The notes below the pieces were generated by a model. It saw only the letters and a list, made by a program, of their open reading frames with translations, did no database searches and was not told the origin of the DNA. A stretch of 32,000 nt of DNA from contig JBMYVL010000001.1 of NCBI GenBank assembly GCA_049606355.1, positions 106,871 through 138,870 of the forward strand. The letters run 5' to 3'. The translations under genes were made by a program, and so were the position numbers. Positions 1 to 30,881 of the stretch are shown here, piece after piece. How positions within the stretch are numbered: the stretch's first letter is position 1; each line of letters begins with the position of its first letter. The DNA comes from Opitutales bacterium. Its GTDB lineage: Bacteria; Verrucomicrobiota; Verrucomicrobiia; Opitutales; Coraliomargaritaceae.

Positions 1-17
1 CATCGCACCAAGCAACC

Positions 18-2333
18 ATGTCCGACTCCCTCCATTCGCAGACCCTCACCGGCGTGCTCGAGCGCATTATCTTTTTCAACGAAGAAAATGCCTACTGTGT
101 CGCTGAAATAGCCGTGGCCGAGGGCAAACAACCGATCACGGTCTTAGGGAATCTGCCTGGAGTGAACTGCGGTGAGACGCTGCAGTTGAGTGGGCAATGG
201 ACGCGCCACCCCAGCCACGGTGACCAATTCAAAATCACGCAGTTCAAATCGCAGTTACCCGCTTCGATTCACGGCATCCGTAAATACCTCGGTAGCGGCA
301 TGGTACACGGCATTGGCAAATCCTACGCCAAAAAAATCGTCGACCACTTCGGTGCCGATACCCTGCGAGTGATCAGCGAAGATTCTGGGCGCCTACACGA
401 GGTCCCCGGCATCGGTAAAACACGGGCGAAATCGATCAAAGCAGCCTGGGAAGCACAAGTTGCCGTACGCGATGTGATGGTCTTCCTGCAGACTTACGGT
501 GTCACACCGGCACAATGTGTACGCTTGGTTAAAAAATATGGCAGCGGCGCGAAACGAATTTTACAGGACGAGCCCTACCGCCTCGCCGAAGACATCGAGC
601 GCATCGGCTTTAAAACCGCAGATAAATTGGCACTCAATCTAGGCTTTCCAACCAACTGCAAGGAGCGCGTCGATGCTGGCTTGCTTTACACCATGCAAAC
701 ACTTGAAGACGCAGGGCATACGCTCGGTACACAGCAGGCGCTGGTCGAGCAGGCGCTCAGTCTGCTGGGCGTTGATGCGGCACTGATTCAACAGCGCATC
801 CGTGCGCTGCTAGAGCAAGGTAAACTGTTCGGTATCGAGGCCTTTACTCCCAAACAGGAATCCCTCGGCCCCGCCTGCCAACGTCCGCCGCTCGCTGGCG
901 CCGAGAAGCGTATCGCCACCGCACTACAGCGCATCGATACCACCGATTCCGCGATACCCCCAATCAAGATCGATGCTGCGGTAGCATGGGCTCAGGATAA
1001 AGCCGGTTTTACTTTTGCAGCGCAACAGGCGGCTGCTCTGAAACAAGCGCTCCAAGCGAAGGTCGCGGTCATTACCGGTGGGCCCGGCACGGGGAAGACC
1101 ACGATTTTACGCGCCATCGTTGATATCGCCCGCGCTAAACGTGCTCGCGTACAACTCGCCTCCCCTACGGGTCGAGCGGCGCAGCGCTTGGCTGAGGCGG
1201 CAGGAGCACCTGCCAGTACCATCCATCGACTTCTTAAATATGACGGTGCATCACGTAGCTTCGTCTACAATGCCGAAAATCCATTGCCCTGCGATCTCCT
1301 CATTGTTGATGAAGCCAGTATGCTGGATACCCGCCTCGCGGCCAATTTGTTCGACGCGGTCCCCAGCGCTGCACATCTCATCCTGGTCGGCGATGCGGAT
1401 CAGTTACCTTCCGTCGGCGCTGGCAATGTCCTTGGCGATTTGATGGCGGCGCCTCCCGCACAAGTGACGCGCCTGGATACGATCTTTCGCCAAGGAGAAA
1501 CCAGCGGGATCATCACCACTGCCCACGCTATCCTCAACGGCGAAACACACCCCGGCAAAACCAGTACCAGCTTACGCGCCCTCGATCCCAATCAAGACTT
1601 TACTTTTATTGAAGCCGAAGACGCCGATCAATGTGCGCAGGCTGTCTCCTATCTTGCCCGCGAGTACCTACCTAAAGCTCACGGCATCGATCCCATTAAG
1701 GATCTGCAAATACTGTCGCCGATGCACCGCGGGCTGGCAGGGATCGCCGCGCTCAATGCGGCCCTACAAGACAGTCTCAACCATACAGTGAAGGCGCAGT
1801 CACGACTACGCTCCGACCCCGACTATACCCCCGCCCGCCAAAGCCATTTCCGCGAAAAGACCGGCAAACCCCTCCCATCCGAACTCGCCTATGGCGCCAC
1901 CACTTTCCGTATCGGCGACAAGGTCATCCAAACCCGCAACAATTACGACAAAGCGATTTTTAACGGCGATACGGGCATCATACAGGGCATTAGCCCAGAC
2001 CGATCGGGGCTTACCGTTGATTTTGCCGGCGAAGCAGTTGAATTCACCAAAGGAGAGCTGGGTGAATTGCAGCTCGCCTACGCGATCAGTATCCACAAAA
2101 GCCAAGGGAGTGAGTATCCGATCGTCATCATTCCATTGCTCAAGCAGCACTACATGATGCTGCAGCGCAACTTAGTCTACACAGGGATTACCCGCGCCCG
2201 CAGAAAAGTCTATCTGGTCGGATCGGTCGATGCTTACGCCATGGCCATTAATAATCATAAGACCGAAGTGCGTCGCACCCACCTGCCCGCTCGCCTGAGA
2301 CAGGCGATGTCCAGCGAAGCGAAAAACGACTAA
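18..2333 (+). CDS. recD2: RecD2-type SF1 ATP-dependent DNA helicase
   Basis: 771-aa ORF with an ATG start. SF1 helicase motifs are present: GGPGTGKTT (Walker A), LIVDEASM (Walker B), LVGDADQLPSVGAGN, SIHKSQGSEYP and VYTGITRARRKV. The N-terminal helix-hairpin-helix-like repeats (GIGKSYAKKIVDHFG, GIGKTRAKSI) are typical of stand-alone RecD2 rather than RecBCD-type RecD. Confidence 0.9.
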   Translation: MSDSLHSQTLTGVLERIIFFNEENAYCVAEIAVAEGKQPITVLGNLPGVNCGETLQLSGQWTRHPSHGDQFKITQFKSQLPASIHGIRKYLGSGMVHGIGKSYAKKIVDHFGADTLRVISEDSGRLHEVPGIGKTRAKSIKAAWEAQVAVRDVMVFLQTYGVTPAQCVRLVKKYGSGAKRILQDEPYRLAEDIERIGFKTADKLALNLGFPTNCKERVDAGLLYTMQTLEDAGHTLGTQQALVEQALSLLGVDAALIQQRIRALLEQGKLFGIEAFTPKQESLGPACQRPPLAGAEKRIATALQRIDTTDSAIPPIKIDAAVAWAQDKAGFTFAAQQAAALKQALQAKVAVITGGPGTGKTTILRAIVDIARAKRARVQLASPTGRAAQRLAEAAGAPASTIHRLLKYDGASRSFVYNAENPLPCDLLIVDEASMLDTRLAANLFDAVPSAAHLILVGDADQLPSVGAGNVLGDLMAAPPAQVTRLDTIFRQGETSGIITTAHAILNGETHPGKTSTSLRALDPNQDFTFIEAEDADQCAQAVSYLAREYLPKAHGIDPIKDLQILSPMHRGLAGIAALNAALQDSLNHTVKAQSRLRSDPDYTPARQSHFREKTGKPLPSELAYGATTFRIGDKVIQTRNNYDKAIFNGDTGIIQGISPDRSGLTVDFAGEAVEFTKGELGELQLAYAISIHKSQGSEYPIVIIPLLKQHYMMLQRNLVYTGITRARRKVYLVGSVDAYAMAINNHKTEVRRTHLPARLRQAMSSEAKND

Positions 2334-2381
2334 TTGGTAAGTTCCGCAGCGTCCCTGCTATTGTTTGGCAGGACAACCACC

Positions 2382-3917
2382 GTGAACTTACGCCTCATTT
2401 TTGGAGATCAACTGTCGACACAGTTATCCAGCCTCAGCGACCTCGACCCACAGGAGGATTGCTTGTGCCTGTTTGAAGTGCGCCACGAGGCCACTCAAAT
2501 CAAACATCATAAAAAGAAAATCGCGTTTCTGTTTGCGGCCATGCGACATTTTGCCGCCGAGCTTCGTGAACGCGGCTACCATGTTCATTATAGCCGATTG
2601 GATGACCCCGAAAATACCGGTACTTTTTTCGGTGAGCTACAGCGTCTGGTCCAACAGCTCAAACCGGATAAAATAATCCTCACGGCACCCAGTGAGTTCC
2701 GCATTGAACAAGAGGTGAGCACTTGGTCGAAGCGTCTTGGTATAAGCATCGAGCAGCGTGAAGATACACGCTTCCTGGCCACTCGAACTGCCTTCCGAGA
2801 CTGGGCGGCAAACCGCAAACAGTTGCGCATGGAGTTCTTCTACCGAGAAATGCGCCGCACACATGCGATCTTAATGGATGGCGAGCATCCCGTCGGCAAT
2901 CAGTGGAATTTCGATAGTGAAAACCGCAAGCGCCCGCCAGCGGATCATATTAACCCTCAAACCTACACCGCGACTCCGGATGCAATCACCTGCGAAGTGC
3001 TGGATCTGGTCGAACGCGAGTTTGGCGATCACTTCGGCGACCTGCACCCGTTTCATTTCGCAGTCACACGCACCGAGGCATTACAAGCTTTTGAGCAATT
3101 TATCGACAAGCGCCTCCGCCACTTCGGTGACTACCAGGATGCGATGCTGACCGCTGATCCGTGGATGTACCACAGCCATATTGGACATTACCTAAACTGC
3201 GGACTATTACTGCCTTTGGAGTGCCTTCATAAAGTAGAGCAGGCCTACCGTAGCGGTAACGTGCCCCTCAATGCCGCGGAGGGCTTCATTCGGCAGATCC
3301 TCGGCTGGCGTGAATTTGTGCGTGGGATTTACTGGCTACACATGCCCGACTATGCGGACTGCAATGCGCTTCAGGCGAAGCGTCCGCTGCCTGCAGTCTA
3401 TTGGGCAGCACCCACACAGATGAACTGCCTGCACCAGTGTGTGCGCAGCACCGAGCAACATGCCTACGCACACCACATCCAACGGCTTATGGTCTTGGGT
3501 AACTTTGCCTTGCTGGCAGGACTCAATCCAAGAGAAGTCAACGAGTGGTACTGGATTGTATATGCGGATGCGTATGAGTGGGTCGAACTGCCCAACGTTA
3601 GCGGCATGGTGCTCTTTGCTGATGGCGGGCGGTTGGCCTCGAAACCTTACGCTGCGAGCGGTGCTTACATCAATAAAATGTCCGACTACTGTAAAGCTTG
3701 CCGCTATAAGGTAAGTAAAAAAAATGGACCGGATGCCTGCCCCTTTAATTACCTCTACTGGGATTTCCTCATCCGCAACCGTGAGCAACTGGGGCGCAAC
3801 CCTCGGCTCGGCATGCCGTATCGTACTCTGGATAAAATGACTACCGAAAAGATCGCTGCCATTCAGAGCGATGCCACGCGATTCTTGACTGCGCTGGATG
3901 CAGGTGATCCCGTATAA
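2382..3917 (+). CDS. phrB: FeS-cluster cryptochrome/photolyase family protein (FeS-BCP/CryPro, PhrB/CryB-like, probable (6-4) photolyase)
   Basis: Recognised by eye as the COG3046 photolyase-related family from LRLIFGDQLS, HHKKKIAFLFAAMRHFA and HIQRLMVLGNF. Cys spacing C-x2-C-x12-C (YCKACRYKVSKKNGPDAC) plus an upstream Cys (MNCLHQC) matches the [4Fe-4S] ligand pattern of PhrB-type enzymes. The ORF opens at TTG 2334 directly after the recD2 stop. GTG 2382 (VNLRLIF...) gives the family-typical N-terminus, so the start is uncertain by 48 nt. Confidence 0.85.
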   Translation: MNLRLIFGDQLSTQLSSLSDLDPQEDCLCLFEVRHEATQIKHHKKKIAFLFAAMRHFAAELRERGYHVHYSRLDDPENTGTFFGELQRLVQQLKPDKIILTAPSEFRIEQEVSTWSKRLGISIEQREDTRFLATRTAFRDWAANRKQLRMEFFYREMRRTHAILMDGEHPVGNQWNFDSENRKRPPADHINPQTYTATPDAITCEVLDLVEREFGDHFGDLHPFHFAVTRTEALQAFEQFIDKRLRHFGDYQDAMLTADPWMYHSHIGHYLNCGLLLPLECLHKVEQAYRSGNVPLNAAEGFIRQILGWREFVRGIYWLHMPDYADCNALQAKRPLPAVYWAAPTQMNCLHQCVRSTEQHAYAHHIQRLMVLGNFALLAGLNPREVNEWYWIVYADAYEWVELPNVSGMVLFADGGRLASKPYAASGAYINKMSDYCKACRYKVSKKNGPDACPFNYLYWDFLIRNREQLGRNPRLGMPYRTLDKMTTEKIAAIQSDATRFLTALDAGDPV

Positions 3918-3933
3918 CTTGAGTCGGTCAACA

Positions 3934-4680
3934 ATGTCGCCCAAACCAACTCTGGAGCAGCGCCTCGCTGCCACTCGCCGCCCAAATAATCGTAGCGTGA
4001 TCATGCGCCAGCAGTGGCACTCATTGCTGTATCTCCACTGGGCGGTTGATCCGGCACTCTTGACTTCCCGACTGCCGGCGGGCCTATCCATCGATACTTT
4101 TGACGGTCGCGCTTATCTTGGCATCGTACCCTTTTATATGCATGGCTTACGCCCACGCTTCGGACCTCCTGCACCAGGCATCTCCTATTTTCCTGAACTC
4201 AACCTACGTACTTATGTCTACGATACAAAAGGCCGTCCGGGTGTCTGGTTTTTCTCCCTCGATGCCGATAGTCGCCTATCAGTATGCATCGCACGCCGTG
4301 CCTTTAGCCTCAATTACCACTATGCACGCATGCGCTACCGACGCAGCAACTCGGGTCATGTGAGGCTAACTTGCCAAAGACCGAACCAAGCGGAGCAGCG
4401 CTACGCCTATCGAGCCAGGCAATCGATCGGCCCGGCACAACCCGGCTCACTGGCTTTCTTTCTCACTGAGCGCTACTATCTCTTCGCGCAGACGAAGCAC
4501 GGCGACTTACGCATCGGCCAAATCTACCATACGCCGCATCACTTGTTTGATACAGATATCAGCACCTACAGCAAAGCGCTCTTCAAATTGAATGGTTTTA
4601 CGGAGCCGAAAGATGACTATACGCATGCCATCCTAAGTCCACAGGTCGACGTATCGATTTATTCACTACAAAAAATATAA
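3934..4680 (+). CDS. DUF2071 (YqjF) family protein, function unknown
   Basis: Family-typical blocks are WHSLLYLHWAVDPALL, LPAGLSIDTFDGRAYLGIVPFYM, FPELNLRTYV and PGVWFFSLDADSRLSVCIARRAFSLNYHYARM. ATG 3934 lies 16 nt after the photolyase stop. The track ORF opens earlier (3898) but would overlap the photolyase. Confidence 0.85.
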   Translation: MSPKPTLEQRLAATRRPNNRSVIMRQQWHSLLYLHWAVDPALLTSRLPAGLSIDTFDGRAYLGIVPFYMHGLRPRFGPPAPGISYFPELNLRTYVYDTKGRPGVWFFSLDADSRLSVCIARRAFSLNYHYARMRYRRSNSGHVRLTCQRPNQAEQRYAYRARQSIGPAQPGSLAFFLTERYYLFAQTKHGDLRIGQIYHTPHHLFDTDISTYSKALFKLNGFTEPKDDYTHAILSPQVDVSIYSLQKI

Positions 4681-4681
4681 G

Positions 4682-5248
4682 ATGCCGCATCGCTACATCT
4701 CTTGCTGGACTGACACGTTCCCGAAGATCGGCATCGATCTCGGTTACAGTGCGCAACAGCCCTCTTGTGGATTGGCTTTCGAGAACGGCACCGAGGCAAT
4801 CGCTTTGAAATTCGGCGACTGCCTGAACGCAGTCACCGAACAAATCAGTAAAAATGGCCCACACCACCTCATCGTGGAAGCGGTTCTCTCGACTTACCAT
4901 CGTCCTGACGGCAACCCCGACCTACGCGGCACATTTGAAAAAGGGCGTGGCTGGTATCACGGCCCCGGTGTGAGTACCTACGCGGCAGCATTGCGCTTCC
5001 TGACGGTGCTTGATGAGCAACTTCCTCCAGCAGTACAATTACCCCTAACAGAGGGATTCTTAAGCTATAAGCCAGCACGTACAACTCACATTGAAGATGC
5101 CCAGCGACTCATCAAAGAGTACGGCAACGCCGAGTGCTTCAGCCCACGTGAAGGCAGTACTCCGATTTGTGCAGCGATCCACACACCGCCTGAAATTCGT
5201 CGCTATAACTCACCCCGACGTCCGCAACGAAACGCTGACACGACTTGA
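4682..5248 (+). CDS. hypothetical protein, predicted RNase H-fold / RuvC-like nuclease (motif-level call only)
   Basis: 188-aa ORF whose ATG lies 1 nt after the DUF2071 stop (TAAgATG). Three motifs appear in RuvC-like order and spacing: KIGIDLGYS (Asp19), HHLIVEAVLS (Glu66) and THIEDAQRL (His136-x2-Asp139-Ala). Coding status is fairly secure from tight packing in the operon; the nuclease assignment is inference. Confidence 0.55.
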   Translation: MPHRYISCWTDTFPKIGIDLGYSAQQPSCGLAFENGTEAIALKFGDCLNAVTEQISKNGPHHLIVEAVLSTYHRPDGNPDLRGTFEKGRGWYHGPGVSTYAAALRFLTVLDEQLPPAVQLPLTEGFLSYKPARTTHIEDAQRLIKEYGNAECFSPREGSTPICAAIHTPPEIRRYNSPRRPQRNADTT

Positions 5249-5305
5249 GTCACCCACCATATAGCATCAACTTGCTTAATGTGACTGCTTTAGTTTCCCA
5301 CAACC

Positions 5306-8300
5306 GTGCGACATAGAAAAAATTCAATACGCCTGCGTGGCATCCGCCAGAATAACCTCAAAGGCTTCGACTTGGACGTGCCCCTTGGGAAACTGACGGT
5401 CGTCACTGGACTGAGCGGCGCAGGCAAGTCCTCACTCGTTTTTGAGACCCTGCACGCAGAAGGGCAACGTCGCTACGTAGAGACCTTCTCCCCTTACACG
5501 CGGCAGTTTATGGAACTACTGGATCGACCTAAAGTCGACAGTGTAGAGAACATCCCCCCCTCTATTGCGATCCAACAATCGAATACCGTTAAGACCTCAC
5601 GCTCAACCGTCGGCACCATTACCGAACTGTGTGACTACTTTAAGGTCTGGTTCGCACATACCGCGACACTGTATGATCCGGACACGGGGGACGCGATCGA
5701 TAATGAATCGCCGCAAAGTGTTTGGCCGAAACTCCTCAAAGCATACAAAGGGAAATCCATTCTCATCTGCTTCGCAGTAAGCAAGCCCGAGCAGCTAACA
5801 TGGGGCGATATTTTACGGTCGCTAAAAAGTCAGGGTTACACGCGCGTGGTGTGTCGGTCGAGCCCAAGTAATCCTCCCAACATGCAGCGTATCGATGCAC
5901 GACTCATCGAAAAACTGGAACAGCAGGATTCCGTAAGCAGCTTACTTGTCATCCAAGATCGCATTGCTCAAATAGCGAGTTCAGTCCGCACACGTTGTAT
6001 AGAGGCGCTGACACAAGCTTTTCGATTTGGAAACGGAAGTATCCGTATACTCAATACAGAATTTAAAGTAATTGAATCCTTCACTGAGGGTCTTACTTCA
6101 ACCAAATCAGGTCGCAGCTTTCGCGCACCCACACCGACTTTATTTTCATTCAACTCTCCCATCGGCGCCTGCTCTCAATGCCGTGGCTTTGGCCGTGTGA
6201 TCGAGATCGACGATCGCCTAGTGGTACCAGATCGTCATCTGTCTATTGACGATGGCGCCATCCGTGCGTTTCACGGAAGTGTCTATAGCGAAAGTTTGCA
6301 CGACTTACAACGAGCTGCAGCCAAGCACCAAATCCGTACCAACATTCCTTGGTCTGATCTCAGCGCCAAAGAACAGGCCTTCGTCATGCAGGGCGAACCG
6401 AACTACCAAGAAGGGAGCAATCAATGGTACGGTGTGCGACGCTTCTTCAATTGGCTGGAGAGCAAGGTGTATCGAATGCACGTACGCGTATTTCTCTCCA
6501 AATTCCGGAGCTACAACACCTGCCCTGCCTGCCGTGGCGCACGTCTACAACCCGAATCGCTATACTGGAGATGGCAAGGGTATACACTTCCTGAACTCTA
6601 CCGTATGAGTGTTAGTGAGCTTGCCTCATTACTGCAGAAACAATACCAACCAAATGCTACAACGAAGCTTCCCACTGAGCCAGATGCAGCTCTTCATGGA
6701 ATCATTAATCGACTGTCTTTCCTCAAGGATGTAGGGCTTGGTTACTTAAGTTTGGATCGCAGCTCACGCACACTTTCCGGCGGTGAAACCATGCGGGTTA
6801 ATTTAACTGCCTGCCTCGGCTCTGCACTGGTAGACACGCTGTTTGTCCTCGATGAGCCCTCGGTGGGATTGCACGCTCGGGACATCAACCAACTAGTTCA
6901 AATCCTTCGACGTTTATCTGACATGGGTAACACTGTCGTCGTTGTTGAACACGATGAGGAAGTGATGCGCGCAGCTGACAATCTGATCGAGATTGGACCC
7001 AAACCAGGAATTAACGGCGGGCAACTTTGCTATCAAGGCAACTACCAGCGTATCCTCGATTCGGATACAGTAACTGGGCGTTACCTCTCCGGAAAGGAGA
7101 CGATCCCTGTGCCGACTCAACGCCGCCCCTCGTGCACGAACCCTAAAGACTTCTCGCTTAGTGTATATGGAGCGGAAAAATATAATATAGACGACCTTAC
7201 GGTTCATATACCACTCCAGCGTTTAGTCTGCTTAAGTGGCGTGTCCGGATCCGGGAAAAGTACGCTGCTCAACCAAGTAATTTACCAAAACCTACTCGCC
7301 CGCAAAGGGCTGAGTGTTGAAGACCCGGCAAACATTAAAGACATTGAATCCAGTCTTCCCATCTCTGAAGTGGTGTTGGTCGACCAAAGTCCTGTAAGTA
7401 AGACACCACGCTCAAATCCTGCCAGTTACTGTAAGGCATGGGATGAGATTCGTAAGTCCTTCGCAAAACTCGATGCCGCCCAGTCTGCAGGCATGGTCCC
7501 CGGAGATTTTTCATTCAATAGCGGCGACGGTCGCTGCCCAACTTGCTCTGGCTTAGGCTATGAACGGGTCGAAATGCAATTCGTATCCGACTTATTTGTG
7601 CCCTGTGAAGACTGTGCAGGCAAACGCTTCAGAGCCGAAGTCCTCGAGATTGAATACCGGGAGCATAGCATTGCCGACATCCTCGAGATGGACATCAGCG
7701 ATGCGCTGCTGTTGTTCCAGGATGAGCCAAAGATTCTCCAAGCGCTACAACCCCTGATCGAGGTCGGCCTCGGCTACCTCAAGCTCGGGCAACCGCTTAA
7801 CACTTTGTCCGGCGGGGAGTCGCAGCGACTCAAACTCATCCGCTATCTGGGCAAAGTAAAGAGTTCCCCTGCACGCACACAAACGACCGCTGGTGCGGCA
7901 CACGCCTTGATCCTAATTGATGAGCCCACCACCGGGCTTCATCGCGCCGACGTGAAGCGCCTCATCGCCGTATTGCAAGGCTTGGTCGACGTCGGTCATT
8001 CCCTGATCGTTATCGAACACAACCTCGATCTATTAAAAGTTTCAGATTGGATTATAGAGATGGGCCCGGAAGCGGGTAGCAAAGGTGGCCACATCGTTGC
8101 TGAAGGCCCCCCTGAGTCGATCGCACAAAGCGACTGTGCCACAGCTGCGCATTTAAAGGCCGCACTGCAGGCGAAAGCGTCGAGTGAATTGTGCCCTGCC
8201 CTTGGAGTCGCTGCACCTGAGCCACAGCATGGCAGGGTAGCGAACGTGAGTGACCAGCTGTGTATACGCGGAGCGCGTGAACACAACTTACAGAATATTA

Positions 8301-10972
8301 ATTGCGAGATTCGCCACAATCAAATGACTGTGATCACAGGCGTGTCCGGATCTGGAAAATCCTCGCTTGCGTTTGATATCATCTTCGCGGAAGGCCAACG
8401 GCGCTTCATGGAATCCATGTCCGCCTATGCGCGGCAATTCGTTGAGCAAATGCCGCGGGCCGAAGTGGATGAACTGATAGGGATCGCGCCCACGGTTGCG
8501 ATCGAGCAGCACGTTACCAAAGGCACGCGTAAATCAACAGTCGCGACTATTACCGAAGTCGCTCAATACCTGCGCCTTCTTTTTGCGCGCATTGGAGTGC
8601 AGCACTCCCCAACCACCGGCGTAGCCGTAACGCATCAATCGGAAGCCACACTGCTCAAACGCTTGCAGCAGCAACTCAAAACCTGGCAAAAAAGCCCTAC
8701 CCAGTTCAAATCAGGGCGACATACTTGCAAGTCCCTATACCTCTGCGCGCCCTTAGTCCGCGCCCGAAAAGGCCATCATGAACCACTGGCAAATTGGGCG
8801 CGCGACCACGGCTACCGCTACCTGCGTATTGACGGCGAAGTCATTGCCTTGAGTGAATTTCAAAAGCTCGATCGCTACCGAGAACATGACATCGATCTAG
8901 TCGTTGCCGAGATGTCACCTAGGGTGCCCACTGCAAGTGAAGCCTTGAGGGAAGCCCTTCGATACGGCAAAGGGAGTGCCTTCCTGATGATGCCAAGTGG
9001 AGTGCTGCTTTCTTGGTTCTCGACCAAGCGCACCGACCCTACTACCGGCGAAGCCTTCCCGGAACTCGAACCCAAGCATTTCTCATGGAACAGCCCGCGT
9101 GGTTGGTGCCCTACTTGTCGCGGCTATGGGCAACTTTATGATTGGTCGGGCAAAGAAGACAAAGTCGCCATGGATCATCTGGATGACGCTGAGCAGGGTG
9201 ACCGTTGCCCCGACTGCCAAGGAGCGCGCTTAAACCCATTGAGCTGTGCGGTCCGTTTACCGCTTAAGAAAACCAAGACTGTTTCCCAAATTTTAAATCA
9301 CGCCTCAGTCGCAAAAAATCATGCCGCAACAGTCTCATTGCCGGAACTACTTCGGTTAACGCCGCGCCGTTTACTCCAAGTGTTATCTGCCATACGCACC
9401 ACGGTCCGCAGTCAAACAATCCTCGATGAACTGCTTCCAGAGATTCAGGAACGCATGCACTTTATGGACCAGGTCGGCCTCGGTTACCTCGAGCTCGATC
9501 GATCCACCGCCTCACTCTCCGGCGGCGAGGCACAGCGTATTCGTCTTGCCGCACAACTTGGGTCTAATCTCTCCGGTGTGCTCTACGTACTCGATGAGCC
9601 TTCCATCGGTCTCCACGCACGCGACAACGCAGCACTCATTCAGATGCTTGAGCAACTGCGACGACGTGGGAATACCCTGGTCGTGGTTGAGCATAATGAA
9701 GCGACGATGCGTGAGGCGGATACAATCATCGACCTCGGCCCTGCCGCAGGCATTCACGGCGGACACATCGTCGCACAAGGGAGCTTAGCGCAGCTCAAAA
9801 AATGTCCTGCATCGATAACGGGGCGCTATCTGCGCCAAGCCATCCCGCACCCCCTACGCGGCGGCTATCGTGAGCTGCCTGCAGCGTGGTCCCCGCGCAA
9901 AAAACTGAGTAATCGCAATTGGATCACTTTGCAGGGGGCTGCCTTGCGTAATCTTAAAGGTTTTGATGTCTCTTTACCCAAGCAACGCTTATCAGTGATT
10001 TGTGGCGTGTCCGGAGCCGGCAAAAGCACGCTCGTCCGAGATTTGCTCAAACCACTGGTAGAAACTGCAATCCGAACAAAATCGTCGAAGCTGTCTGCAA
10101 AAAGCGCTGGTGTCGTAGTCCCGACGAATCGACATGCCTTCAAGGCCATCCACCATGCCGATGATTTGCGCAAAGTGATCGAGGTTGATCAAAGCCCAAT
10201 TGGCAAAACTCCGCGTTCGACACCAGCCACCTACATTGGTGCCTTTGACTACATTCGGAAAATATATGCGGGTTTACCCGAGGCGCGATTGCGCGGTTAC
10301 ACCGCAAGCACTTTTTCATTCAACACTAAAGGTGGGCGCTGCGAAACCTGTAAAGGTGCCGGACGAGTGAAGTTGGAAATGAATTTCATGCCCGACACCT
10401 ATGTCACCTGTGAAGACTGCAACGGGCGGCGCTATGGTGTGGAGATCGAGGACTTGCGCTGGAATGGCAAAAGTATCGCAGACGTTCTGGCCATGAGCTT
10501 TGAAGAAGCTGTAACCTTCTTCAGTTTCCACGCACAACTCAGCCAGCTGATGCAGTTGATGGTCGAGACTGGCCTAGGTTATATTAGTTTAGGTCAATAT
10601 TCTCCGACGCTTTCCGGAGGCGAGGCACAGCGTATGAAGCTAGTCAGCGAATTAGCCAAGGGCCAACCCACCTTTAAGGAGCGCCAGTATAATTTAGCTT
10701 CGGCCAATCTCTACCTGCTCGAAGAACCGACCATTGGGCTGCACCTCAGTGATGTCGAACGCCTGATTCACTTGCTGCATCGCCTCGTCGACAAAGGCCA
10801 TACCGTCATTGTGATTGAGCATCACTTGGAGGTCATTGCGGATGCGGATTATTTGGTAGAACTCGGCCCAGATGGTGGCGACGCAGGAGGCGAGCTTTTG
10901 TACCAAGGTCCCGTTAAGAGTCTCAGGCAGTGCAAGGAAAGTGTGACGGCCCCCTTCCTTGAACAAAAATAA
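5306..10972 (+). CDS. tandem-fused double UvrA-like ABC ATPase (two complete UvrA units, four nucleotide-binding domains)
   Basis: 1888-aa uninterrupted ORF with a GTG start. It has four Walker A motifs (GLSGAGKSS, GVSGSGKST, GVSGSGKSS, GVSGAGKST) and four ABC signatures (LSGGETMR, LSGGESQR, LSGGEAQR twice). It has four Walker B motifs (VLDEPSVGLH, LIDEPTTGLH, VLDEPSIGLH, LLEEPTIGLH). UvrA-specific blocks are present in both halves: AEGQRRY/F, FSFNSP..C..C.G.G, VDQSP(V/I).KTPRS.PA(S/T)Y and the CxxC...CxxC zinc modules. The second unit starts near LCIRGAREHNL (nt ~8258). Confidence 0.9.
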   Translation: MRHRKNSIRLRGIRQNNLKGFDLDVPLGKLTVVTGLSGAGKSSLVFETLHAEGQRRYVETFSPYTRQFMELLDRPKVDSVENIPPSIAIQQSNTVKTSRSTVGTITELCDYFKVWFAHTATLYDPDTGDAIDNESPQSVWPKLLKAYKGKSILICFAVSKPEQLTWGDILRSLKSQGYTRVVCRSSPSNPPNMQRIDARLIEKLEQQDSVSSLLVIQDRIAQIASSVRTRCIEALTQAFRFGNGSIRILNTEFKVIESFTEGLTSTKSGRSFRAPTPTLFSFNSPIGACSQCRGFGRVIEIDDRLVVPDRHLSIDDGAIRAFHGSVYSESLHDLQRAAAKHQIRTNIPWSDLSAKEQAFVMQGEPNYQEGSNQWYGVRRFFNWLESKVYRMHVRVFLSKFRSYNTCPACRGARLQPESLYWRWQGYTLPELYRMSVSELASLLQKQYQPNATTKLPTEPDAALHGIINRLSFLKDVGLGYLSLDRSSRTLSGGETMRVNLTACLGSALVDTLFVLDEPSVGLHARDINQLVQILRRLSDMGNTVVVVEHDEEVMRAADNLIEIGPKPGINGGQLCYQGNYQRILDSDTVTGRYLSGKETIPVPTQRRPSCTNPKDFSLSVYGAEKYNIDDLTVHIPLQRLVCLSGVSGSGKSTLLNQVIYQNLLARKGLSVEDPANIKDIESSLPISEVVLVDQSPVSKTPRSNPASYCKAWDEIRKSFAKLDAAQSAGMVPGDFSFNSGDGRCPTCSGLGYERVEMQFVSDLFVPCEDCAGKRFRAEVLEIEYREHSIADILEMDISDALLLFQDEPKILQALQPLIEVGLGYLKLGQPLNTLSGGESQRLKLIRYLGKVKSSPARTQTTAGAAHALILIDEPTTGLHRADVKRLIAVLQGLVDVGHSLIVIEHNLDLLKVSDWIIEMGPEAGSKGGHIVAEGPPESIAQSDCATAAHLKAALQAKASSELCPALGVAAPEPQHGRVANVSDQLCIRGAREHNLQNINCEIRHNQMTVITGVSGSGKSSLAFDIIFAEGQRRFMESMSAYARQFVEQMPRAEVDELIGIAPTVAIEQHVTKGTRKSTVATITEVAQYLRLLFARIGVQHSPTTGVAVTHQSEATLLKRLQQQLKTWQKSPTQFKSGRHTCKSLYLCAPLVRARKGHHEPLANWARDHGYRYLRIDGEVIALSEFQKLDRYREHDIDLVVAEMSPRVPTASEALREALRYGKGSAFLMMPSGVLLSWFSTKRTDPTTGEAFPELEPKHFSWNSPRGWCPTCRGYGQLYDWSGKEDKVAMDHLDDAEQGDRCPDCQGARLNPLSCAVRLPLKKTKTVSQILNHASVAKNHAATVSLPELLRLTPRRLLQVLSAIRTTVRSQTILDELLPEIQERMHFMDQVGLGYLELDRSTASLSGGEAQRIRLAAQLGSNLSGVLYVLDEPSIGLHARDNAALIQMLEQLRRRGNTLVVVEHNEATMREADTIIDLGPAAGIHGGHIVAQGSLAQLKKCPASITGRYLRQAIPHPLRGGYRELPAAWSPRKKLSNRNWITLQGAALRNLKGFDVSLPKQRLSVICGVSGAGKSTLVRDLLKPLVETAIRTKSSKLSAKSAGVVVPTNRHAFKAIHHADDLRKVIEVDQSPIGKTPRSTPATYIGAFDYIRKIYAGLPEARLRGYTASTFSFNTKGGRCETCKGAGRVKLEMNFMPDTYVTCEDCNGRRYGVEIEDLRWNGKSIADVLAMSFEEAVTFFSFHAQLSQLMQLMVETGLGYISLGQYSPTLSGGEAQRMKLVSELAKGQPTFKERQYNLASANLYLLEEPTIGLHLSDVERLIHLLHRLVDKGHTVIVIEHHLEVIADADYLVELGPDGGDAGGELLYQGPVKSLRQCKESVTAPFLEQK

Positions 10973-10994
10973 AACGCCGGCGAAGCTGGCAAAA

Positions 10995-11774
10995 TCAGCT
11001 CGTTGGTTCGCAAATATGCTTCACGACTTGTGCGGCCATCATGAAGCCCATGGCGCCGGTCACAAAAGTTGCGGACCCAAATCCTTGGTCGCAGTTCAAT
11101 CGATAATCGGCACCCGACTCGCGTTCACACGCCACCGTACCATCGGCCTGAGGAAAAAGCGGGAATTCATCGGTGTACACGCAATCAATCTTGAATTTCT
11201 GCCGCGACTTGCGAGGAAAGCCATACTCACGCCGCAGCCGTTTGCGTACCTGTAGGAGTAGAGGATCGTTTATCGTGCGCGCTAAGTCGGCTACTTGTAC
11301 TCGCGATGGATCGATACGCCCACCCGCCCCACCGCATGTAATCATACTCAGCCCACGTTTACGTGCCTCCGCGATAAGCAAACACTTATGTTGGGTCGTA
11401 TCGATTGCATCCACGATCATGTCGTAGGCAGGCTCCAACAAGCGCTCAGCAGAAGACTCAGTAAAAAAGCATACCTCCGATCGCACCTCACAGTCCGGGG
11501 CAATTTCCCGTATGCGTTCATCCAGCACCTCCGCCTTGGCTCGACCCACCGTGCTATCCAGTGCGTGAATTTGACGATTCACATTACTCAAACATACCTC
11601 ATCCATGTCGATCAGCGTCAATTGACCGACTCCGGTACGCGCCAAGGCTTCAACAACCCATGAACCGACACCGCCGAGACCAACAACTGCGACATGCGCA
11701 GATTGCAACCGCGCCAAGCCAGCAGTCCCATATAGGCGCCCCAGTGCGCTAAATCGTGTGGCGTAATCAGACAT
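10995..11774 (-). CDS. tcdA: tRNA threonylcarbamoyladenosine dehydratase (ThiF/E1-like, TcdA/CsdL family)
   Basis: 259 aa. It has a ThiF-type dinucleotide fold (VAVVGLGGVGSWVVEALARTGVG, LIDMDEVCLSNVNRQIHA). The YgdL/TcdA-like length and C-terminal region also fit. Confidence 0.8.
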   Translation of the reverse strand: MSDYATRFSALGRLYGTAGLARLQSAHVAVVGLGGVGSWVVEALARTGVGQLTLIDMDEVCLSNVNRQIHALDSTVGRAKAEVLDERIREIAPDCEVRSEVCFFTESSAERLLEPAYDMIVDAIDTTQHKCLLIAEARKRGLSMITCGGAGGRIDPSRVQVADLARTINDPLLLQVRKRLRREYGFPRKSRQKFKIDCVYTDEFPLFPQADGTVACERESGADYRLNCDQGFGSATFVTGAMGFMMAAQVVKHICEPTS

Positions 11775-11863
11775 AATAGATGACTGACAGAGCTTGGTGC
11801 ACTTCCGTCAGAAGCAAGCAGAAAACGCTTCCCTCTGCCTATTTAGGGCGCCAATGTAGTTGA

Positions 11864-12622
11864 ATGCCTAGCTTAAATGATGTCGTCGCATTCTGTGACC
11901 AACGTACTCGACGCAGCGCGATCAAAGACTTCGATGGTGCGCAGAATGGTCTGCAAGTTGAGAACAATGGCTCTGTCAGTAAGATTGCTGCAGTCGTGGA
12001 TGCAGGACAGATACCATTCAAAGATGCCATAGCGGCGGGCGCTGACTTCATTATTTGCCATCACGGCCTCTTTTGGAATCCTCCGATCCCTTTAGTGGAG
12101 ACGCATTATACTAAAATTAAATTGGCCCTGGATAATAATTTAGCGGTTTACGGCTCCCACTTGCCCTTGGATTGCCACCCCGAAATCGGAAACAATGCAG
12201 TTCTGGCAAAAACAATCGGCTTAAAAAAAATCGGTAGTTTCCTACCTTATGAGGGCACTGAAGTCGCGCTGATTGCAGAAGGTCCTGCAGGAGGTCGATC
12301 CGAGCTCGCTTCAAAATTGCAACAGCAATTCCCTAAAACGTATCAAGGGATTGAATACGGGAGTGAGTCACCCCAGCGCATCGCTCTATTGACTGGCAGT
12401 GGTCAAAGTGCGATCCCTCATCTACAAGCCAACCAGATTGATACACTCATTACCGGCGAGTTGCGGCAGCATCATTTTAATATGGCACAGGAACTGGGCC
12501 TCAACCTCTACCCTTGCGGGCACTATGCAACCGAAGTCTTTGGCGTGCAGGCACTCGCCGCCGAGGTGGCGGACGCATTCTCAATCGAATGGTGCTTCAT
12601 CGAGCAACCGTGCTTGCTTTAA
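11864..12622 (+). CDS. Nif3-like dinuclear metal-centre protein (YbgI / GTP cyclohydrolase 1 type 2 family)
   Basis: 252 aa. The family-typical N-terminus has a metal-binding His pair (DFIICHHGLFW). The C-terminal block is GELRQHHFNMAQELGLNLYPCGHYATE. Confidence 0.85.
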   Translation: MPSLNDVVAFCDQRTRRSAIKDFDGAQNGLQVENNGSVSKIAAVVDAGQIPFKDAIAAGADFIICHHGLFWNPPIPLVETHYTKIKLALDNNLAVYGSHLPLDCHPEIGNNAVLAKTIGLKKIGSFLPYEGTEVALIAEGPAGGRSELASKLQQQFPKTYQGIEYGSESPQRIALLTGSGQSAIPHLQANQIDTLITGELRQHHFNMAQELGLNLYPCGHYATEVFGVQALAAEVADAFSIEWCFIEQPCLL

Positions 12623-12676: not shown

Positions 12677-13114
12677 ATGAAACGCATTGTCATCATAAAC
12701 GGTCCGAATCTGGACCGACTCGGGCTCCGTGAGCCAGCGATCTACGGCGATCAAACGCTAACGGATCTGGAAAACCTACTCACAGAAGAGGCGGCATCTT
12801 TGGATGTAGAAGTTAAATTCTATCAATCCAACCACGAGGGTTTTATTATAGATGAAATCAACAATGAATATGCGGATGGCGAAGTGTTTGGCATTATCAT
12901 TAATCCAGGCGCCTTGACGCACACCAGCCTTGCCTTACGTGATGCGATTGCGGGGGCAGAGTTACCCGTCATAGAGGTTCACATTAGCAACATTTATCGC
13001 CGCGAAGAAATCCGCCAACATTCGATGACTGCCGAGGTCTGCGTGGGTGTGATCTCCGGACTCGGCTTCGATGGCTATGTGGCAGCGCTGCGGCACATGG
13101 CAGCACTGGACTAG
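12677..13114 (+). CDS. aroQ: type II 3-dehydroquinate dehydratase
   Basis: 145 aa. IINGPNLDRLGLREPAIYG, YQSNHEG, INPGALTHTS and EVHISNIYRRE are canonical AroQ blocks. Confidence 0.95.
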   Translation: MKRIVIINGPNLDRLGLREPAIYGDQTLTDLENLLTEEAASLDVEVKFYQSNHEGFIIDEINNEYADGEVFGIIINPGALTHTSLALRDAIAGAELPVIEVHISNIYRREEIRQHSMTAEVCVGVISGLGFDGYVAALRHMAALD

Positions 13115-15675
13115 CTCTCTGCAGGCATGAGCTTGGCAAGCTCTTCCAAGTCTGAGAAATGCGCGCGTAAGTCACCCGCGCTACCGATATTACCAAGCGT
13201 GTTCTCAAACAACTCTCGCTTCTCTTTCTTTAAGTGCTGGATGCGTTCTTCAATGGTTCCTTGTGTAATCATTCGATAGACGAAGACTCGACGATCTTGC
13301 CCAATGCGATGCACTCGGTCGACCGCTTGGCTTTCTACGGCAGGATTCCACCAAGGGTCTAAGAGGAACACATAATCGGCCGCGTGTAATGTTATACCCG
13401 TTCCGCCGGCACGTAAGCTCACCAATATAACTGCGGGACCGTCAACAGACTGGAAGCGTTGCACCGGCTTTTCCCGGTCTCGCGTCTGCCCTGTCAGCTC
13501 AAGCAGTGCACTCTGCGGAAATGCCTCTCGGATGAGTGGTTTCAATCGCTTCAACAACTGTACAAATTGACTAAAGATAACGACTTTGCGCGCACCCTGA
13601 CCTTGCAAGGCTTCTTCGAGGTGGATGAGTAAAGTCTGGATTTTACCGCTTTGAGCCAGGTCTGCCTCAACTTCAGGAATAAGACCTGGATCGCAACAGG
13701 CTTGGCGTAAGCGTGTCAGCAAGGAGAAGAAGCTCATTGCCTGCTGGTGCATCGCTGCCTGCAAATCATCTCCCAACTCATCACGTCCGCGCGCTAGTAA
13801 TCCTTCATAGGTCTGACGCTGTACCTCTGTGATAGGGCAGACCAAATCCATTTCCAGCTTAGGAGGTAGGTCCTTACCAACGGTGTCCTTTTGACGGCGC
13901 AAAAAGAAGGGCGCAATTTGAGCGCGCAATCGCTGCTCAAATTCAGCCCGACGCTCCACCTGCTCCTGAGTAACGGCATCTTCAAAACTACGGCGCGTCC
14001 CCAACAAGCCGGGCATGAGAAAGCGAAAAATCGTCCACAGGTCCAACAGTCGATTTTCCAAGGGCGTCCCCGTTATGGCAATGCGACTTTCGGCACGAAT
14101 GGCACAGCAGGCATGCGTCACCTTGGCATCTGGGTTTTTAATTTGCTGCGCTTCGTCTAGTACCGCGTAGCCGAAATCAACACCGTCGAGTAAATGCTTG
14201 TGGCGACGCAATTGTGTATAGCTAGCGATCCATAACTTAGGCTGCGTCGCTTCTGTCCCGCTAAAATCAGCTCCGCTACGCAGCACTGCGGTTTGCAACT
14301 GCGGATACCAACGCGCGGCTTCGCTCTCCCAAACCGGCACCACGCTGGCAGGGCAGACAATAAGACTGGGTTTATCCGGGATCACCGCATGCGCCAGCAA
14401 TGTCAGCACCTGTAGCGTCTTGCCGAGGCCCATTTCATCTGCCAGTAAGCCATGGCAGCCATGCGCCCTGAGATTGGCGAGCCATTGCACCCCGTGTATT
14501 TGATAGTCACGTAAGAATTTCGGCAGCTCTAGCTGTGATACCTTATTTTCGTCTGAAGCAGCTGACACACTCGCACGCCACGCCGCCATCTCATCTTGCA
14601 AATTCAGCTCGGCGCCTTGCTCCCCGAAAAGTGAAAACACCATGTAGCGCGGCCAAGTTTGCGCCTCCCCCTTGCCGGCCCCTGCCGCCACGCGCCACTC
14701 CGCCAATGCCTTGGATTGCGCATCAGCAATTCGCACAAGACCGAGCCCCTTCACGATATGCGTCCCTCGCCCCGCCTTCGCTAAACGTTCGGCATCTTCC
14801 GGATCCAACCACTGCCGTCCCAGTTTTAACTGCCAATCCACTTGCATGGCCTCGCGCCCAGCCGGCTTCACTTGCCCAACAACCTTGACCGCACGTACTC
14901 CTTTCGCCATCTGCTGCGCGGCGGTATCGAGGTCCACATAATCAAAGCGCTTCTCAAAACGCTTTAATTGGTGAGTCAAAAAAGGCGCTATACGCTCTGG
15001 ATCAGAGAGCAAATAATCACGCTGCTCGCTCCGATAATGAAAGCCCGAATCACGCGCTTGCGCAGTTAGGCGGACCAGAGCCTCTCGCTCATTGGATGTA
15101 AGTTTCGCATCTTCCGCAGAAAAAGCTGGTTCACGGCTAAAATCCCCAGCCACCCAATAAGCGGTTAAACGAAGTCCGTTCCTTAAGCCTTCCAAGCGCG
15201 GGGTTAGGCGGCGTGCCGGCGGTTCTTCTTCTTTCACTGCCACAGGATGCTGCGGAACTGCACGCATTTGCGTTTCATTTTGTGGCCCTCGGGGGGATTG
15301 CTTAGGCTCATACGGCAACGGTGCAATCTCGTCGGCAATTAACTCCTCAATCTCATATAGCCCCGCAACGGCAACTGCTCGACCCAAGGCATTGTCTTCA
15401 ATCGATGCACGAACGTAAGGCCCCTTCGGACTCCACTCGATTACGGCATAGCAGGTATCTTTGCGAGCGAAGGCACAGTTAATAATCGCCTCTTTCTCGC
15501 TCAACTCAACGCCGGTGATTTGCCCATCGCGGTAAATCTGACGACCGCGCTGTAGTGCGGCGGGGCTAAAATACGCCTCCCACTCAAGCCCGACATTGGT
15601 AAACCATGCCTCAAGTGCAGCAGAGTTATATATACGACTGGATAAGCGGGCTGACATACAGACAGAATGAACCAT
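13111..15675 (-). CDS. SNF2-family (RapA/HepA-like) helicase/ATPase with a ~390-aa uncharacterised N-terminal region
   Basis: SNF2 motifs are present: DYQIHGVQWL, LADEMGLGKTLQ (I), LDEAQQIKN (II), TGTPLENR (III), SLRAGGTGITL and LLDPWWNPAVESQAVDRVHRIGQ (V/VI). The start is ambiguous: TTG 15696, ATG 15675 or ATG 15657. Confidence 0.85.
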   Translation of the reverse strand: MVHSVCMSARLSSRIYNSAALEAWFTNVGLEWEAYFSPAALQRGRQIYRDGQITGVELSEKEAIINCAFARKDTCYAVIEWSPKGPYVRASIEDNALGRAVAVAGLYEIEELIADEIAPLPYEPKQSPRGPQNETQMRAVPQHPVAVKEEEPPARRLTPRLEGLRNGLRLTAYWVAGDFSREPAFSAEDAKLTSNEREALVRLTAQARDSGFHYRSEQRDYLLSDPERIAPFLTHQLKRFEKRFDYVDLDTAAQQMAKGVRAVKVVGQVKPAGREAMQVDWQLKLGRQWLDPEDAERLAKAGRGTHIVKGLGLVRIADAQSKALAEWRVAAGAGKGEAQTWPRYMVFSLFGEQGAELNLQDEMAAWRASVSAASDENKVSQLELPKFLRDYQIHGVQWLANLRAHGCHGLLADEMGLGKTLQVLTLLAHAVIPDKPSLIVCPASVVPVWESEAARWYPQLQTAVLRSGADFSGTEATQPKLWIASYTQLRRHKHLLDGVDFGYAVLDEAQQIKNPDAKVTHACCAIRAESRIAITGTPLENRLLDLWTIFRFLMPGLLGTRRSFEDAVTQEQVERRAEFEQRLRAQIAPFFLRRQKDTVGKDLPPKLEMDLVCPITEVQRQTYEGLLARGRDELGDDLQAAMHQQAMSFFSLLTRLRQACCDPGLIPEVEADLAQSGKIQTLLIHLEEALQGQGARKVVIFSQFVQLLKRLKPLIREAFPQSALLELTGQTRDREKPVQRFQSVDGPAVILVSLRAGGTGITLHAADYVFLLDPWWNPAVESQAVDRVHRIGQDRRVFVYRMITQGTIEERIQHLKKEKRELFENTLGNIGSAGDLRAHFSDLEELAKLMPAES

Positions 15676-15728
15676 CCAGCCTAGCGAATCTCGCAAACCG
15701 CCCGCAAGGGTATTTGATAAAAAAGCGC

Positions 15729-17270: not shown

Positions 17271-17429
17271 ATTATCCGTCGCTGCGCGCCCATCGGAACC
17301 GACCGATACTTGTGCACATGCCAAGTCGCTTATTGTGAGCGAAGGACGGAGGCTGAACGCTAATCTGCTATCTCACAAGTCGCGTTTTCAGAAACCTCGA
17401 GAGGCCCACCGACCTTCAATCGGTGCGAT
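17271..17429 (-). promoter_or_regulatory. ~160-nt structured intergenic/leader region between the pheA stop and the DEAD-box helicase start
   Basis: Plus-strand coordinates: ACTTG (17308-12) pairs with CAAGT (17322-26); TTGTGAG (17333-39) pairs with CTCACAA (17372-78); CACCGA (17407-12) pairs with TCGGTG (17420-25). The 8-mer CAAGTCGC occurs twice (17322-29 and 17376-83), which allows alternative pairings. No function has been shown. Confidence 0.3.
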
Positions 17430-23075: not shown

Positions 23076-23093
23076 TTGGGTCTCAGGATACAC

Positions 23094-30350: not shown

Positions 30351-30359
30351 CAGTCACAA

Positions 30360-30763: not shown

Positions 30764-30881
30764 CTCCGACTCCATTGTTAGGGACATGCCTGCGTTAAGG
30801 CCGACGCACATTACCTTGATTTTTAACGCTACCCCTAGCGAAAATACCCCGCCTTTTATTTGTGAGCCTGCTAGCAGCCAC

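Follow-up and report, generated by a model that had tools for sequence, protein, structure and literature searches.

A photolyase-linked protein family with a predicted RNase H-like fold, encoded between recD2 and a tandem uvrA in a Coraliomargarita-like bacterium

We analyzed a 32-kb window (the whole stretch of DNA under study, to which all window coordinates below refer) from an Opitutales bacterium (Coraliomargaritaceae; assembly GCA_049606355.1, contig JBMYVL010000001.1, positions 106,871-138,870 of the forward strand). Five genes follow one another on its plus strand at 18-10972, encoding RecD2, a PhrB-type Fe-S (6-4) photolyase, a DUF2071 protein, a 188-aa protein of an unnamed family (the 188-aa open reading frame, ORF) and an 1888-aa tandem UvrA. 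On balance, we favor a composite explanation of this locus, in which housekeeping recD2 and uvrA genes flank a photoreactivation cassette that includes a nuclease-like 188-aa protein. The division into cassette and flanks is well supported, while the nuclease activity and the ultraviolet (UV)-related substrate are steps that we infer. Across genomes, the part of the locus that acts as a linked unit is the photolyase, the DUF2071 gene and the 188-aa ORF; the smaller unit that recurs is the photolyase together with the 188-aa ORF, often accompanied by DUF2071 or DUF2805. The features of the locus are as follows.

18..2333, plus strand: recD2, superfamily 1B (SF1B) helicase (TIGR01448 equivalog and Pfam domains); left flank of the cassette
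2382..3917, plus strand: predicted Fe-S bacterial (6-4) photolyase (FeS-BCP, PhrB-like), 511 aa (PF04244 and PhrB 4DJA matches; alternative start TTG 2334)
3934..4680, plus strand: DUF2071 protein, 248 aa (PF09844); frequent partner of the photolyase and the 188-aa ORF
4682..5248, plus strand: 188-aa ORF, unnamed family with a predicted RNase H-like fold (homologs, invariant residues, AlphaFold2 model)
5306..8170, plus strand: uvrA, N-terminal copy (residues 1-955), with UvrB-binding and insertion domains and Zn modules 2 and 3, without Zn module 1
8171..10972, plus strand: uvrA, C-terminal copy (residues 956-1888), with UvrB-binding domain and Zn modules 2 and 3, without insertion domain and Zn module 1

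Linkage of the 188-aa family to photolyase genes

We surveyed 55 genome loci with a relative of the 188-aa ORF and 80 metagenome loci by calling their ORFs, clustering the neighboring genes and annotating the recurrent clusters. The metagenome scan used a 14-sequence alignment, and many of its contigs were too short to show neighbors. Unless stated otherwise, locus counts refer to the 53 genome loci that hold the 188-aa ORF, and "near" means within four genes of it.

A photolyase-family gene was found near the 188-aa ORF in 24 of the 53 loci. The gene was of the PhrB type in 16 loci and of the class-I type (PF00875+PF03441) in three, and in seven it encoded a ~390-aa protein with a FAD-binding domain only. 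These three photolyase types were combined with the ORF in at least six gene orders. When genome and metagenome loci were pooled, photolyase-family genes made up 34 of 619 neighbors within four genes of the ORF and 0 of 400 farther out in these same loci, and all 34 shared the strand of the ORF. The link was also present in 10 of 17 Opitutales-type clusters after ORFs were collapsed at 70% identity. The 188-aa ORF is non-randomly linked to UV-repair genes.

The photolyase of the window matched PF04244 (DPRP domain) with 275 bits and aligned over its full length with PhrB of A. tumefaciens (4DJA; residues 3-508 against 4-509, 621 bits, E 1e-185). The four cysteines that ligate the [4Fe-4S] cluster of PhrB are kept (in "MNC" and "DYCxxCRY...ACPFN"), and from its sequence the product of the second gene is predicted to be an Fe-S bacterial (6-4) photolyase.

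The neighboring DUF2071 protein scored 222 bits against PF09844, for which the gathering score is 27. Members of this family have an acetoacetate-decarboxylase-like fold without the catalytic lysine (PMC4520260). A DUF2071 gene was adjacent to the 188-aa ORF, on either side, in 8 of the 53 loci by an ORF-based count and in ~11 by tblastn, and further adjacencies were present in metagenome loci. In four loci (L011, L016, L039 and L044) we observed a mutS gene (855 aa, with all five MutS domains) two to four genes downstream of the 188-aa ORF. It directly followed an ORF-DUF2071 pair in three of the four; here, in another clade, a further housekeeping repair gene adjoins the cassette.

A second small partner, DUF2805/TIGR03643, was encoded directly upstream of the 188-aa ORF in 11 genome loci. 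Eight loci (L027, L029, L030, L042, L043, L073, L090 and L093) contained a recurrent same-strand string upstream of the ORF homolog, in the order ~390-aa photolyase-like protein, ADP-ribosylglycohydrolase and/or thioesterase-like protein, DUF2805/TIGR03643, ORF. The ADP-ribosylglycohydrolase and thioesterase-like genes were not both present in every such locus. The ~390-aa protein of these strings matched the FAD-binding domain only, and may have been shortened by ORF calling.

Two homologs came from contigs binned outside the Verrucomicrobiota. One, in a bin of Zhongshania aliphaticivorans (Gammaproteobacteria; L005), was 63% identical to the 188-aa protein of the window and had a PhrB-type photolyase, 64% identical, directly upstream; the other, in a Polaribacter bin (Bacteroidota; L040), was 54% identical to that of the window. 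Both contigs look like mis-binned Verrucomicrobial contigs.

Family and predicted fold of the 188-aa protein

We identified 190 homologs of the 188-aa ORF at E<=1e-3 in a 90%-clustered collection, with all named entries labeled "hypothetical". An exhaustive profile search added a further 401 representative clusters (50% identity), mostly of stand-alone proteins of 180-230 aa. The close relatives belong to Verrucomicrobiota (Opitutales); members of a more distant subfamily, with 30-45% identity, come from Planctomycetota, Dehalococcoidia, Brocadiia and further groups. The 188-aa protein had no Pfam, NCBIfam, PDB-sequence, PADLOC or PHROGs match, and PDB sequences searched with a profile of the family gave no hit either. 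A Pfam scan of the longer family members yielded a single informative fusion, a 367-aa protein (P0168) in which the 188-aa-family domain is N-terminal and an RNase HI / RVT_3 domain occupies 232-358.

Two distant members had neighborhoods that differ from that of the window. On contig L147 (1-8061) the homolog (5001-5555) lies just past a type II cyclic-oligonucleotide-based anti-phage signaling system (CBASS) operon (DncV-like nucleotidyltransferase, E2/ThiF and JAB) and genes for HNH and Zn-ribbon proteins, and is followed by an SRAP gene and an rve integrase, which is a defense or mobile context. On contig L144 (2505-5543) the distant member comes after same-strand Peptidase_M78, DUF4411 and faint AbiGi-like genes and before a MerR-like gene, in a neighborhood that looks variable or of the abortive-infection type.

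Seven residues (D19, E66, L69, S70, W91, E124 and P170) were invariant in 50 diverse members of the family, and D139 was invariant inside each subfamily. The conserved acidic residues of the 188-aa protein are D19, E66, E86, E124 and D139, and residues 77-96 form a strictly conserved loop, "GNPxxRGxFEKGRGWYxGPG". An AlphaFold2 (AF2) model built from a diverse alignment had a predicted local distance difference test score (pLDDT) of 94.2 and a predicted template-modeling score (pTM) of 0.89. Its elements (strands 15-19, 29-33 and 40-42, helix 44-58, strand 62-66, helix 95-113, strand 120-127 and helix 136-145) are modeled in the order b1-b2-b3-a1-b4-(long loop 67-94)-a2-b5-a3, which corresponds to an RNase H-like topology. 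In the model, strands b1 and b4 terminate in D19 and E66, b5 contains E124 and a3 contains D139.

Foldseek gave weak matches (template-modeling score, TM, about 0.3-0.4) to RuvC resolvases of phages, to RNase H domains of retroviruses, to nuclease domains of terminases and to Cas12f; the best match was a phage RuvC (E 2.7e-3, prob 0.98). The preliminary description of this DNA had called the ORF "RuvC-like", a label that the AF2 model and Foldseek uphold at most at the level of the fold. Membership of the RuvC family itself was rejected on profile evidence: no match to PF02075/RuvC or to any other Pfam or NCBIfam family was obtained for 26 family members, even at E up to 10, and hhalign found no similarity to RuvC. 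The model suggests instead that the 188-aa ORF represents a new, unnamed family of the RNase H-like fold class. Because of this predicted fold and the conserved acidic residues, the protein is a probable metal-dependent nuclease.

Several results weigh against the composite explanation. At the level of the protein, the fold matches were weak (TM about 0.3-0.4, with no PDB match below E 0.03), and hhalign against E. coli RuvC (sequence verified against 1HJR) was negative, with a probability of 0.2%; the sole segment that it aligned, which was not significant, placed H136 and D139 on RuvC D138 and D141. At the level of the neighborhood, none of the 13 distant-subfamily clusters had a photolyase neighbor, and about half of the Opitutales ORF loci lacked photolyase, Uvr and DUF2071 genes alike over a distance of 10 kb. 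The order in the BACL24 clade was DUF2805, ORF, DEAD-box helicase, NUDIX; in another clade a histone-deacetylase-like gene preceded the ORF; in Sulfuriroseicoccus the ORF lay among unrelated genes; and some distant members were in defense or mobile contexts.

The main rival explanation takes the 188-aa protein for a general nucleic-acid housekeeping enzyme (e.g. in RNA or R-loop processing) whose gene lies beside photolyases in a poorly conserved region, an adjacency without functional meaning. The BACL24-type loci, where the ORF is flanked by DUF2805 and by a DEAD-box RNA helicase and NUDIX, are in keeping with this, as are the relative fused to RNase HI, the heterogeneous neighbors of the distant homologs and the half of the loci that lack a repair neighbor. 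However, a meaningless adjacency does not account for the confinement of photolyase-family genes to the near neighborhood of the ORF, always in its orientation. Three photolyase types in at least six gene orders are also hard to derive from one accidental inherited arrangement, and there are further links of the ORF to uvrA, uvrB and mutS. We regard a general housekeeping enzyme as unlikely, although it is the strongest of the alternatives.

Flanking repair genes and genomic context

ORF calls on the plus strand (18-2333, 2334/2382-3917, 3898/3934-4680, 4682-5248 and 5306-10972) and direct reading of the junctions confirmed that the locus consists of five same-strand, tightly packed genes, separated by gaps of 48 (or 0), 16, 1 and 57 nt. 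The recD2 gene ends with TAA at 2331-2333. The photolyase gene, with its stop at 3917, may start at TTG 2334 or GTG 2382. The PhrB alignment covers the product read from GTG 2382 from its third residue on; this makes GTG 2382 the likelier start and leaves 48 nt, not 0, between the gene and recD2. The direct abutment of the two genes given in the preliminary description thus holds only for the TTG start and not for the likelier GTG start; the other three spacings given there are as we read them. DUF2071 starts at ATG 3934, 16 nt past the photolyase gene, a start that was also called on an independent contig. Its stop (TAA 4678-4680) is followed by a single "g" and then by ATG 4682 of the 188-aa ORF, which ends with TGA at 5246-5248; after 57 nt, uvrA runs from GTG 5306 to 10972.

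Scans of 1-11900 for consensus promoters and terminators returned sites no more frequently than in shuffled sequence, and no plus-strand terminator was found between the five genes. Because the scans stayed at the level of shuffled sequence, operon structure is still a matter of spacing, with which co-transcription of the genes would be compatible.

RecD2 scored 817 bits against the NCBIfam equivalog TIGR01448 (cut-off 500) and has the OB, HHH, AAA_30, SH3 and UvrD_C_2 Pfam domains of an SF1B helicase; its gene is a housekeeping repair gene that flanks the cassette on the left. The interval between recD2 and uvrA differs among relatives. In loci L006 and L007 we found RecD2 followed at some remove by a class-I-type photolyase, DUF2071, the ORF and UvrA. 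A contig with the C. akajimensis UvrA sequence (L060) has the order RecD2, OYE, photolyase, DUF2071, UvrA; it lacks the 188-aa ORF, and the 370 nt that separate DUF2071 from uvrA on this contig contained no remnant of it. Lentimonas encodes RecD2, a SIR2-like protein and UvrA with no photolyase cassette in between, and strain W4R72 has UvrA alone. In the Lentimonas locus (L062:5601-6836) the gene that fills the slot is SIR2_2-like and on the opposite strand. This slot seems to be variable. Because its content differs in this way, recD2 and uvrA are old neighbors whose proximity predates the variable content between them.

The 1888-aa UvrA consists of two complete UvrA copies in one chain, the first of which is class-I-like. 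Residues 6-953 align with residues 22-955 of B. stearothermophilus UvrA (689 bits), and the C-terminal half aligns with T. maritima UvrA (690 bits) in two blocks that bypass the insertion domain. The whole protein scored 1831 bits against NF001503 (equivalog cut-off 1147) and 1794 against TIGR00630 (cut-off 730). Each half contains two Walker A motifs (at 35, 645, 1012 and 1567) and two LSGGE motifs (at 490, 834, 1404 and 1769). A UvrB-binding domain is present in both: PF17760 matched two stretches, the better at 1142-1226 in the C-terminal half, and both halves align with solved UvrAs across this region. The insertion domain is present in the N-terminal half (PF17755 at 302-366, with CxxC pairs 289/406 spaced by 114 aa) and absent from the C-terminal half, where CxxC pairs 1268/1301 are only 30 aa apart. 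There are eight CxxC pairs in total, with further N-terminal ones at 744/767, and Zn modules 2 and 3 are present in both halves. As the preliminary description had stated, Zn module 1 is missing. The alignments and the list of CxxC pairs show this for both halves, in which all four ligand positions are occupied by residues other than Cys or His ("ATLYDPDTG" and "GVQHSPTTG" in place of the C-x2-C/H pair, "TSTKSGRS" and "TDPTTGEA" in place of the second pair). The halves are only 34% identical to each other, suggesting that the duplication is old.

The 120 best homologs of this protein were 1670-2403 aa long, nearly all of them 1817-2078 aa, and came from Coraliomargarita, Lentimonas, Puniceicoccaceae, BACL24 and Rubellicoccus; all named ones were labeled "excinuclease ABC subunit UvrA" or "subunit A". 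The tandem uvrA of Rubellicoccus has a canonical uvrB at a distance of ~2 kb. A tandem UvrA is the standard UvrA across the order Opitutales, with or without the 188-aa ORF. Because of these order-wide homologs, the equivalog score, the UvrB-binding domains and the uvrB of Rubellicoccus, we conclude that the 1888-aa protein is, as far as its sequence can tell, the normal nucleotide excision repair (NER) UvrA of the lineage in the form of a covalent asymmetric pseudo-dimer. Its most likely function is in ordinary NER, together with UvrB and UvrC.

The preliminary description had offered, as one reading, a self-contained pathway parallel to UvrABC. In such an integrated five-gene pathway, independent of UvrB and UvrC, UvrA-UvrA would sense lesions or unusual DNA structures, the 188-aa protein would cut and RecD2 would unwind the DNA. 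It noted that no uvrB or uvrC is nearby, and neither is indeed present in the 32-kb window. Same-strand, tight packing would fit such a pathway, and so would the features missing from the UvrA, namely Zn module 1 and the insertion domain of the C-terminal half. The tandem uvrA directly follows the 188-aa ORF in six loci and is four genes away from it in one more, and on a Pirellulales contig a distant homolog, 43% identical, lies directly downstream of uvrB. RecD2, photolyase, DUF2071 and UvrA are co-localized in that order in L002, L004 and L060 as in the window, without the ORF in the last of these.

The full order with the ORF, however, was found outside the window only in L002 and L004, which are close relatives. 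Protein identity is 70-85%, and the downstream genes for ThiF, NIF3 and AroQ are also syntenic; because of this shared housekeeping context, the full-order loci, which are essentially of the same genus, count as roughly one observation. The ORF mostly occurs apart from both flanking genes, with no uvrA near it in 46/53 loci (about 87%) and no recD2 in 48/53 to about 94% of loci. Conversely, the tandem UvrA is found throughout the Opitutales irrespective of the ORF, keeps both UvrB-binding domains and coexists with a canonical uvrB in Rubellicoccus, and C. akajimensis has the photolyase, DUF2071 and UvrA but no ORF. A self-contained UvrA-UvrA, nuclease and RecD2 pathway is thus not borne out, and we consider an integrated five-gene system very unlikely. 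The composite explanation, with recD2 and uvrA as flanks, accommodates these distributions.

A further alternative would have the locus serve in surveillance of foreign DNA (anti-phage or anti-plasmid) or in genotoxin self-resistance of the class II UvrA type (DrrC, Ecm16). RecD-like and UvrA-like ATPases do occur in defense systems, and PADLOC-DB 2.0 returned domain-level matches to typeIV_RecD and mad3 (generic helicase and ABC-ATPase), for RecD2 and UvrA only. Distant relatives of the ORF also stand beside type II CBASS, HNH and integrase genes or beside M78, DUF4411 and AbiGi-like genes. Against this, the 188-aa ORF, DUF2071 and the photolyase had no match in PADLOC-DB 2.0, and RecD2 and UvrA scored far higher on housekeeping equivalogs. 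The remainder of the 32 kb encodes ThiF, NIF3, AroQ, a SNF2 helicase, DeaD, PheA, ScpB, IlvD, PGI, MenC, MenE, IMPDH and PurA, and we detected no tRNA, Rfam match, integrase or compositional break in the window, which is core chromosome and not an island. With housekeeping flanks and no specific PADLOC match, a defense island was rejected, and the suggestion of foreign-DNA surveillance finds no support at this locus.

The self-resistance version does not hold either. Class II UvrAs (DrrC, Ecm16 and D. radiodurans UvrA2) are defined by the loss of the UvrB-binding domain (PMC9328131, PMC3167621). This domain is present twice in the protein of the window, and the analogy with drug resistance is therefore inapplicable; we rejected a class II assignment and, with it, the genotoxin-resistance reading that had been raised earlier. 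Defense and self-resistance together appear extremely improbable.

Some other features of the window were recorded. Genes for a SNF2-family helicase (861 aa; 13111-15696, minus strand) and a DeaD-type RNA helicase (15729-17324, minus strand) lie 2-6 kb past uvrA; in the BACL24-type clade (L014, L018, L032, L037 and L057), the ORF is immediately followed by a gene for a DeaD-like helicase. A 153-aa ORF with no Pfam match (23076-23537, plus strand) directly follows the phosphoglucose isomerase gene. The G+C content falls to 0.48 at 30001-31000, compared with about 0.54 window-wide, and no tRNA or Rfam match was found there; the low-GC part is in a ~860-nt stretch without an ORF of at least 120 aa, between the genes for adenylosuccinate synthetase (ending at 30017) and a methyltransferase (30882-31622, minus strand).

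Proposed role and comparison with known systems

In the composite explanation, recD2 and the 1888-aa uvrA are ordinary repair genes of a marine Coraliomargarita-like bacterium, and a photoreactivation cassette of the PhrB-type (6-4) photolyase, DUF2071 and the 188-aa ORF lies between them. The 188-aa protein would be a stand-alone, divalent-metal-dependent nuclease of RNase H fold, made together with the photolyase. Its substrate may be UV-damaged DNA itself or structures that UV creates (stalled forks, flaps or R-loops), and it would serve as a light-independent complement to photoreversal that handles lesions or their consequences in the dark. Substrate recognition probably falls to the long, invariant loop that connects strand 4 to helix 2 and contains a Trp. 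Any role of the DUF2071 protein in the cassette is likewise one that we infer.

A bolder version, which we regard as quite unlikely, makes the 188-aa protein the first member of a new class of small endonucleases with an RNase H fold. Such enzymes would cut at UV photoproducts or process them, and would provide sun-exposed marine Verrucomicrobia with a light-independent repair route that is genetically coupled to photolyases. The partner for lesion recognition could then be the photolyase, DUF2071 or the tandem UvrA, and the relatives in other phyla, some of them next to CBASS or Abi-like genes, would represent a common nuclease scaffold put to use on different targets.

Most of the five-gene "system" first put forward consists of ordinary repair genes side by side. 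What deserves further attention is the cassette, and in particular the 188-aa family, which occurs repeatedly beside three kinds of photolyase in Verrucomicrobia of the sunlit ocean. To our knowledge, bacterial UV repair is regarded as essentially complete, with photolyases, UvrABC, UVDE and translesion synthesis. The 188-aa family, should it prove to be a nuclease linked to UV damage, would be a new component of this repertoire, and one from abundant surface-ocean Verrucomicrobia that are hard to study genetically. The recurrent photolyase linkage also provides first functional leads for DUF2071 and DUF2805/TIGR03643. The fused UvrA, found throughout the order, amounts to a naturally asymmetric "dimer" and could show which features of the dimer are needed on one side only.

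Literature on FeS-BCP operons, on DUF2805/TIGR03643 and on duplicated or "class III" UvrA yielded nothing bearing on this cluster, and comparison is with the individual components. The photolyase shares full-length similarity, the DPRP domain and the four Fe-S cysteines with FeS-BCP (6-4) photolyases (PhrB, 4DJA; R. sphaeroides CryB, 3ZXS); the protein itself is unremarkable and is unusual only in its neighbors.

The modeled 188-aa protein resembles RuvC and RNase H-like nucleases (phage RuvC, retroviral RNase H, the Cas12 RuvC domain) in the order of its secondary-structure elements and in having acidic residues where strands 1 and 4 end and on the helix that follows strand 5. Unlike these nucleases, it has a 28-residue invariant loop between strand 4 and helix 2 and an invariant Glu in strand 5. 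UVDE/UvsE offers a functional analogy only, as a small single nuclease that provides a light-independent route for cyclobutane pyrimidine dimers and 6-4 photoproducts beside photolyase and NER. UVDE is a TIM-barrel enzyme; we propose no homology with the 188-aa protein, for which lesion-specific incision is purely hypothetical.

For the tandem UvrA, the double-length UvrA of Chlamydia (NF001885 / PRK00635, a 1809-residue model), from another PVC phylum, has the same tandem architecture. The 1888-aa protein scored 1167 bits against NF001885, far under the equivalog cut-off of 3054, and by the NCBI criterion the two are not in the same orthologous group. The existence of this model means that fused UvrAs are already curated and annotated as UvrA, and duplicated "class III" UvrAs were reportedly listed by Goosen and Moolenaar in 2008. 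The class II UvrA paralogs are likewise without the first zinc module (PMC9328131); unlike them, the UvrA of the window keeps the UvrB-binding domain in both halves. Each half resembles canonical class I UvrA (2R6F, 3PIH) over essentially its full length (~690 bits), sharing two Walker A motifs, two LSGGE motifs, the UvrB-binding domain and Zn modules 2 and 3. The differences from class I are that both copies lack Zn module 1, that the second lacks the insertion domain, and that the two are fused in one chain, so that the usual homodimer would become a covalent asymmetric pseudo-dimer.

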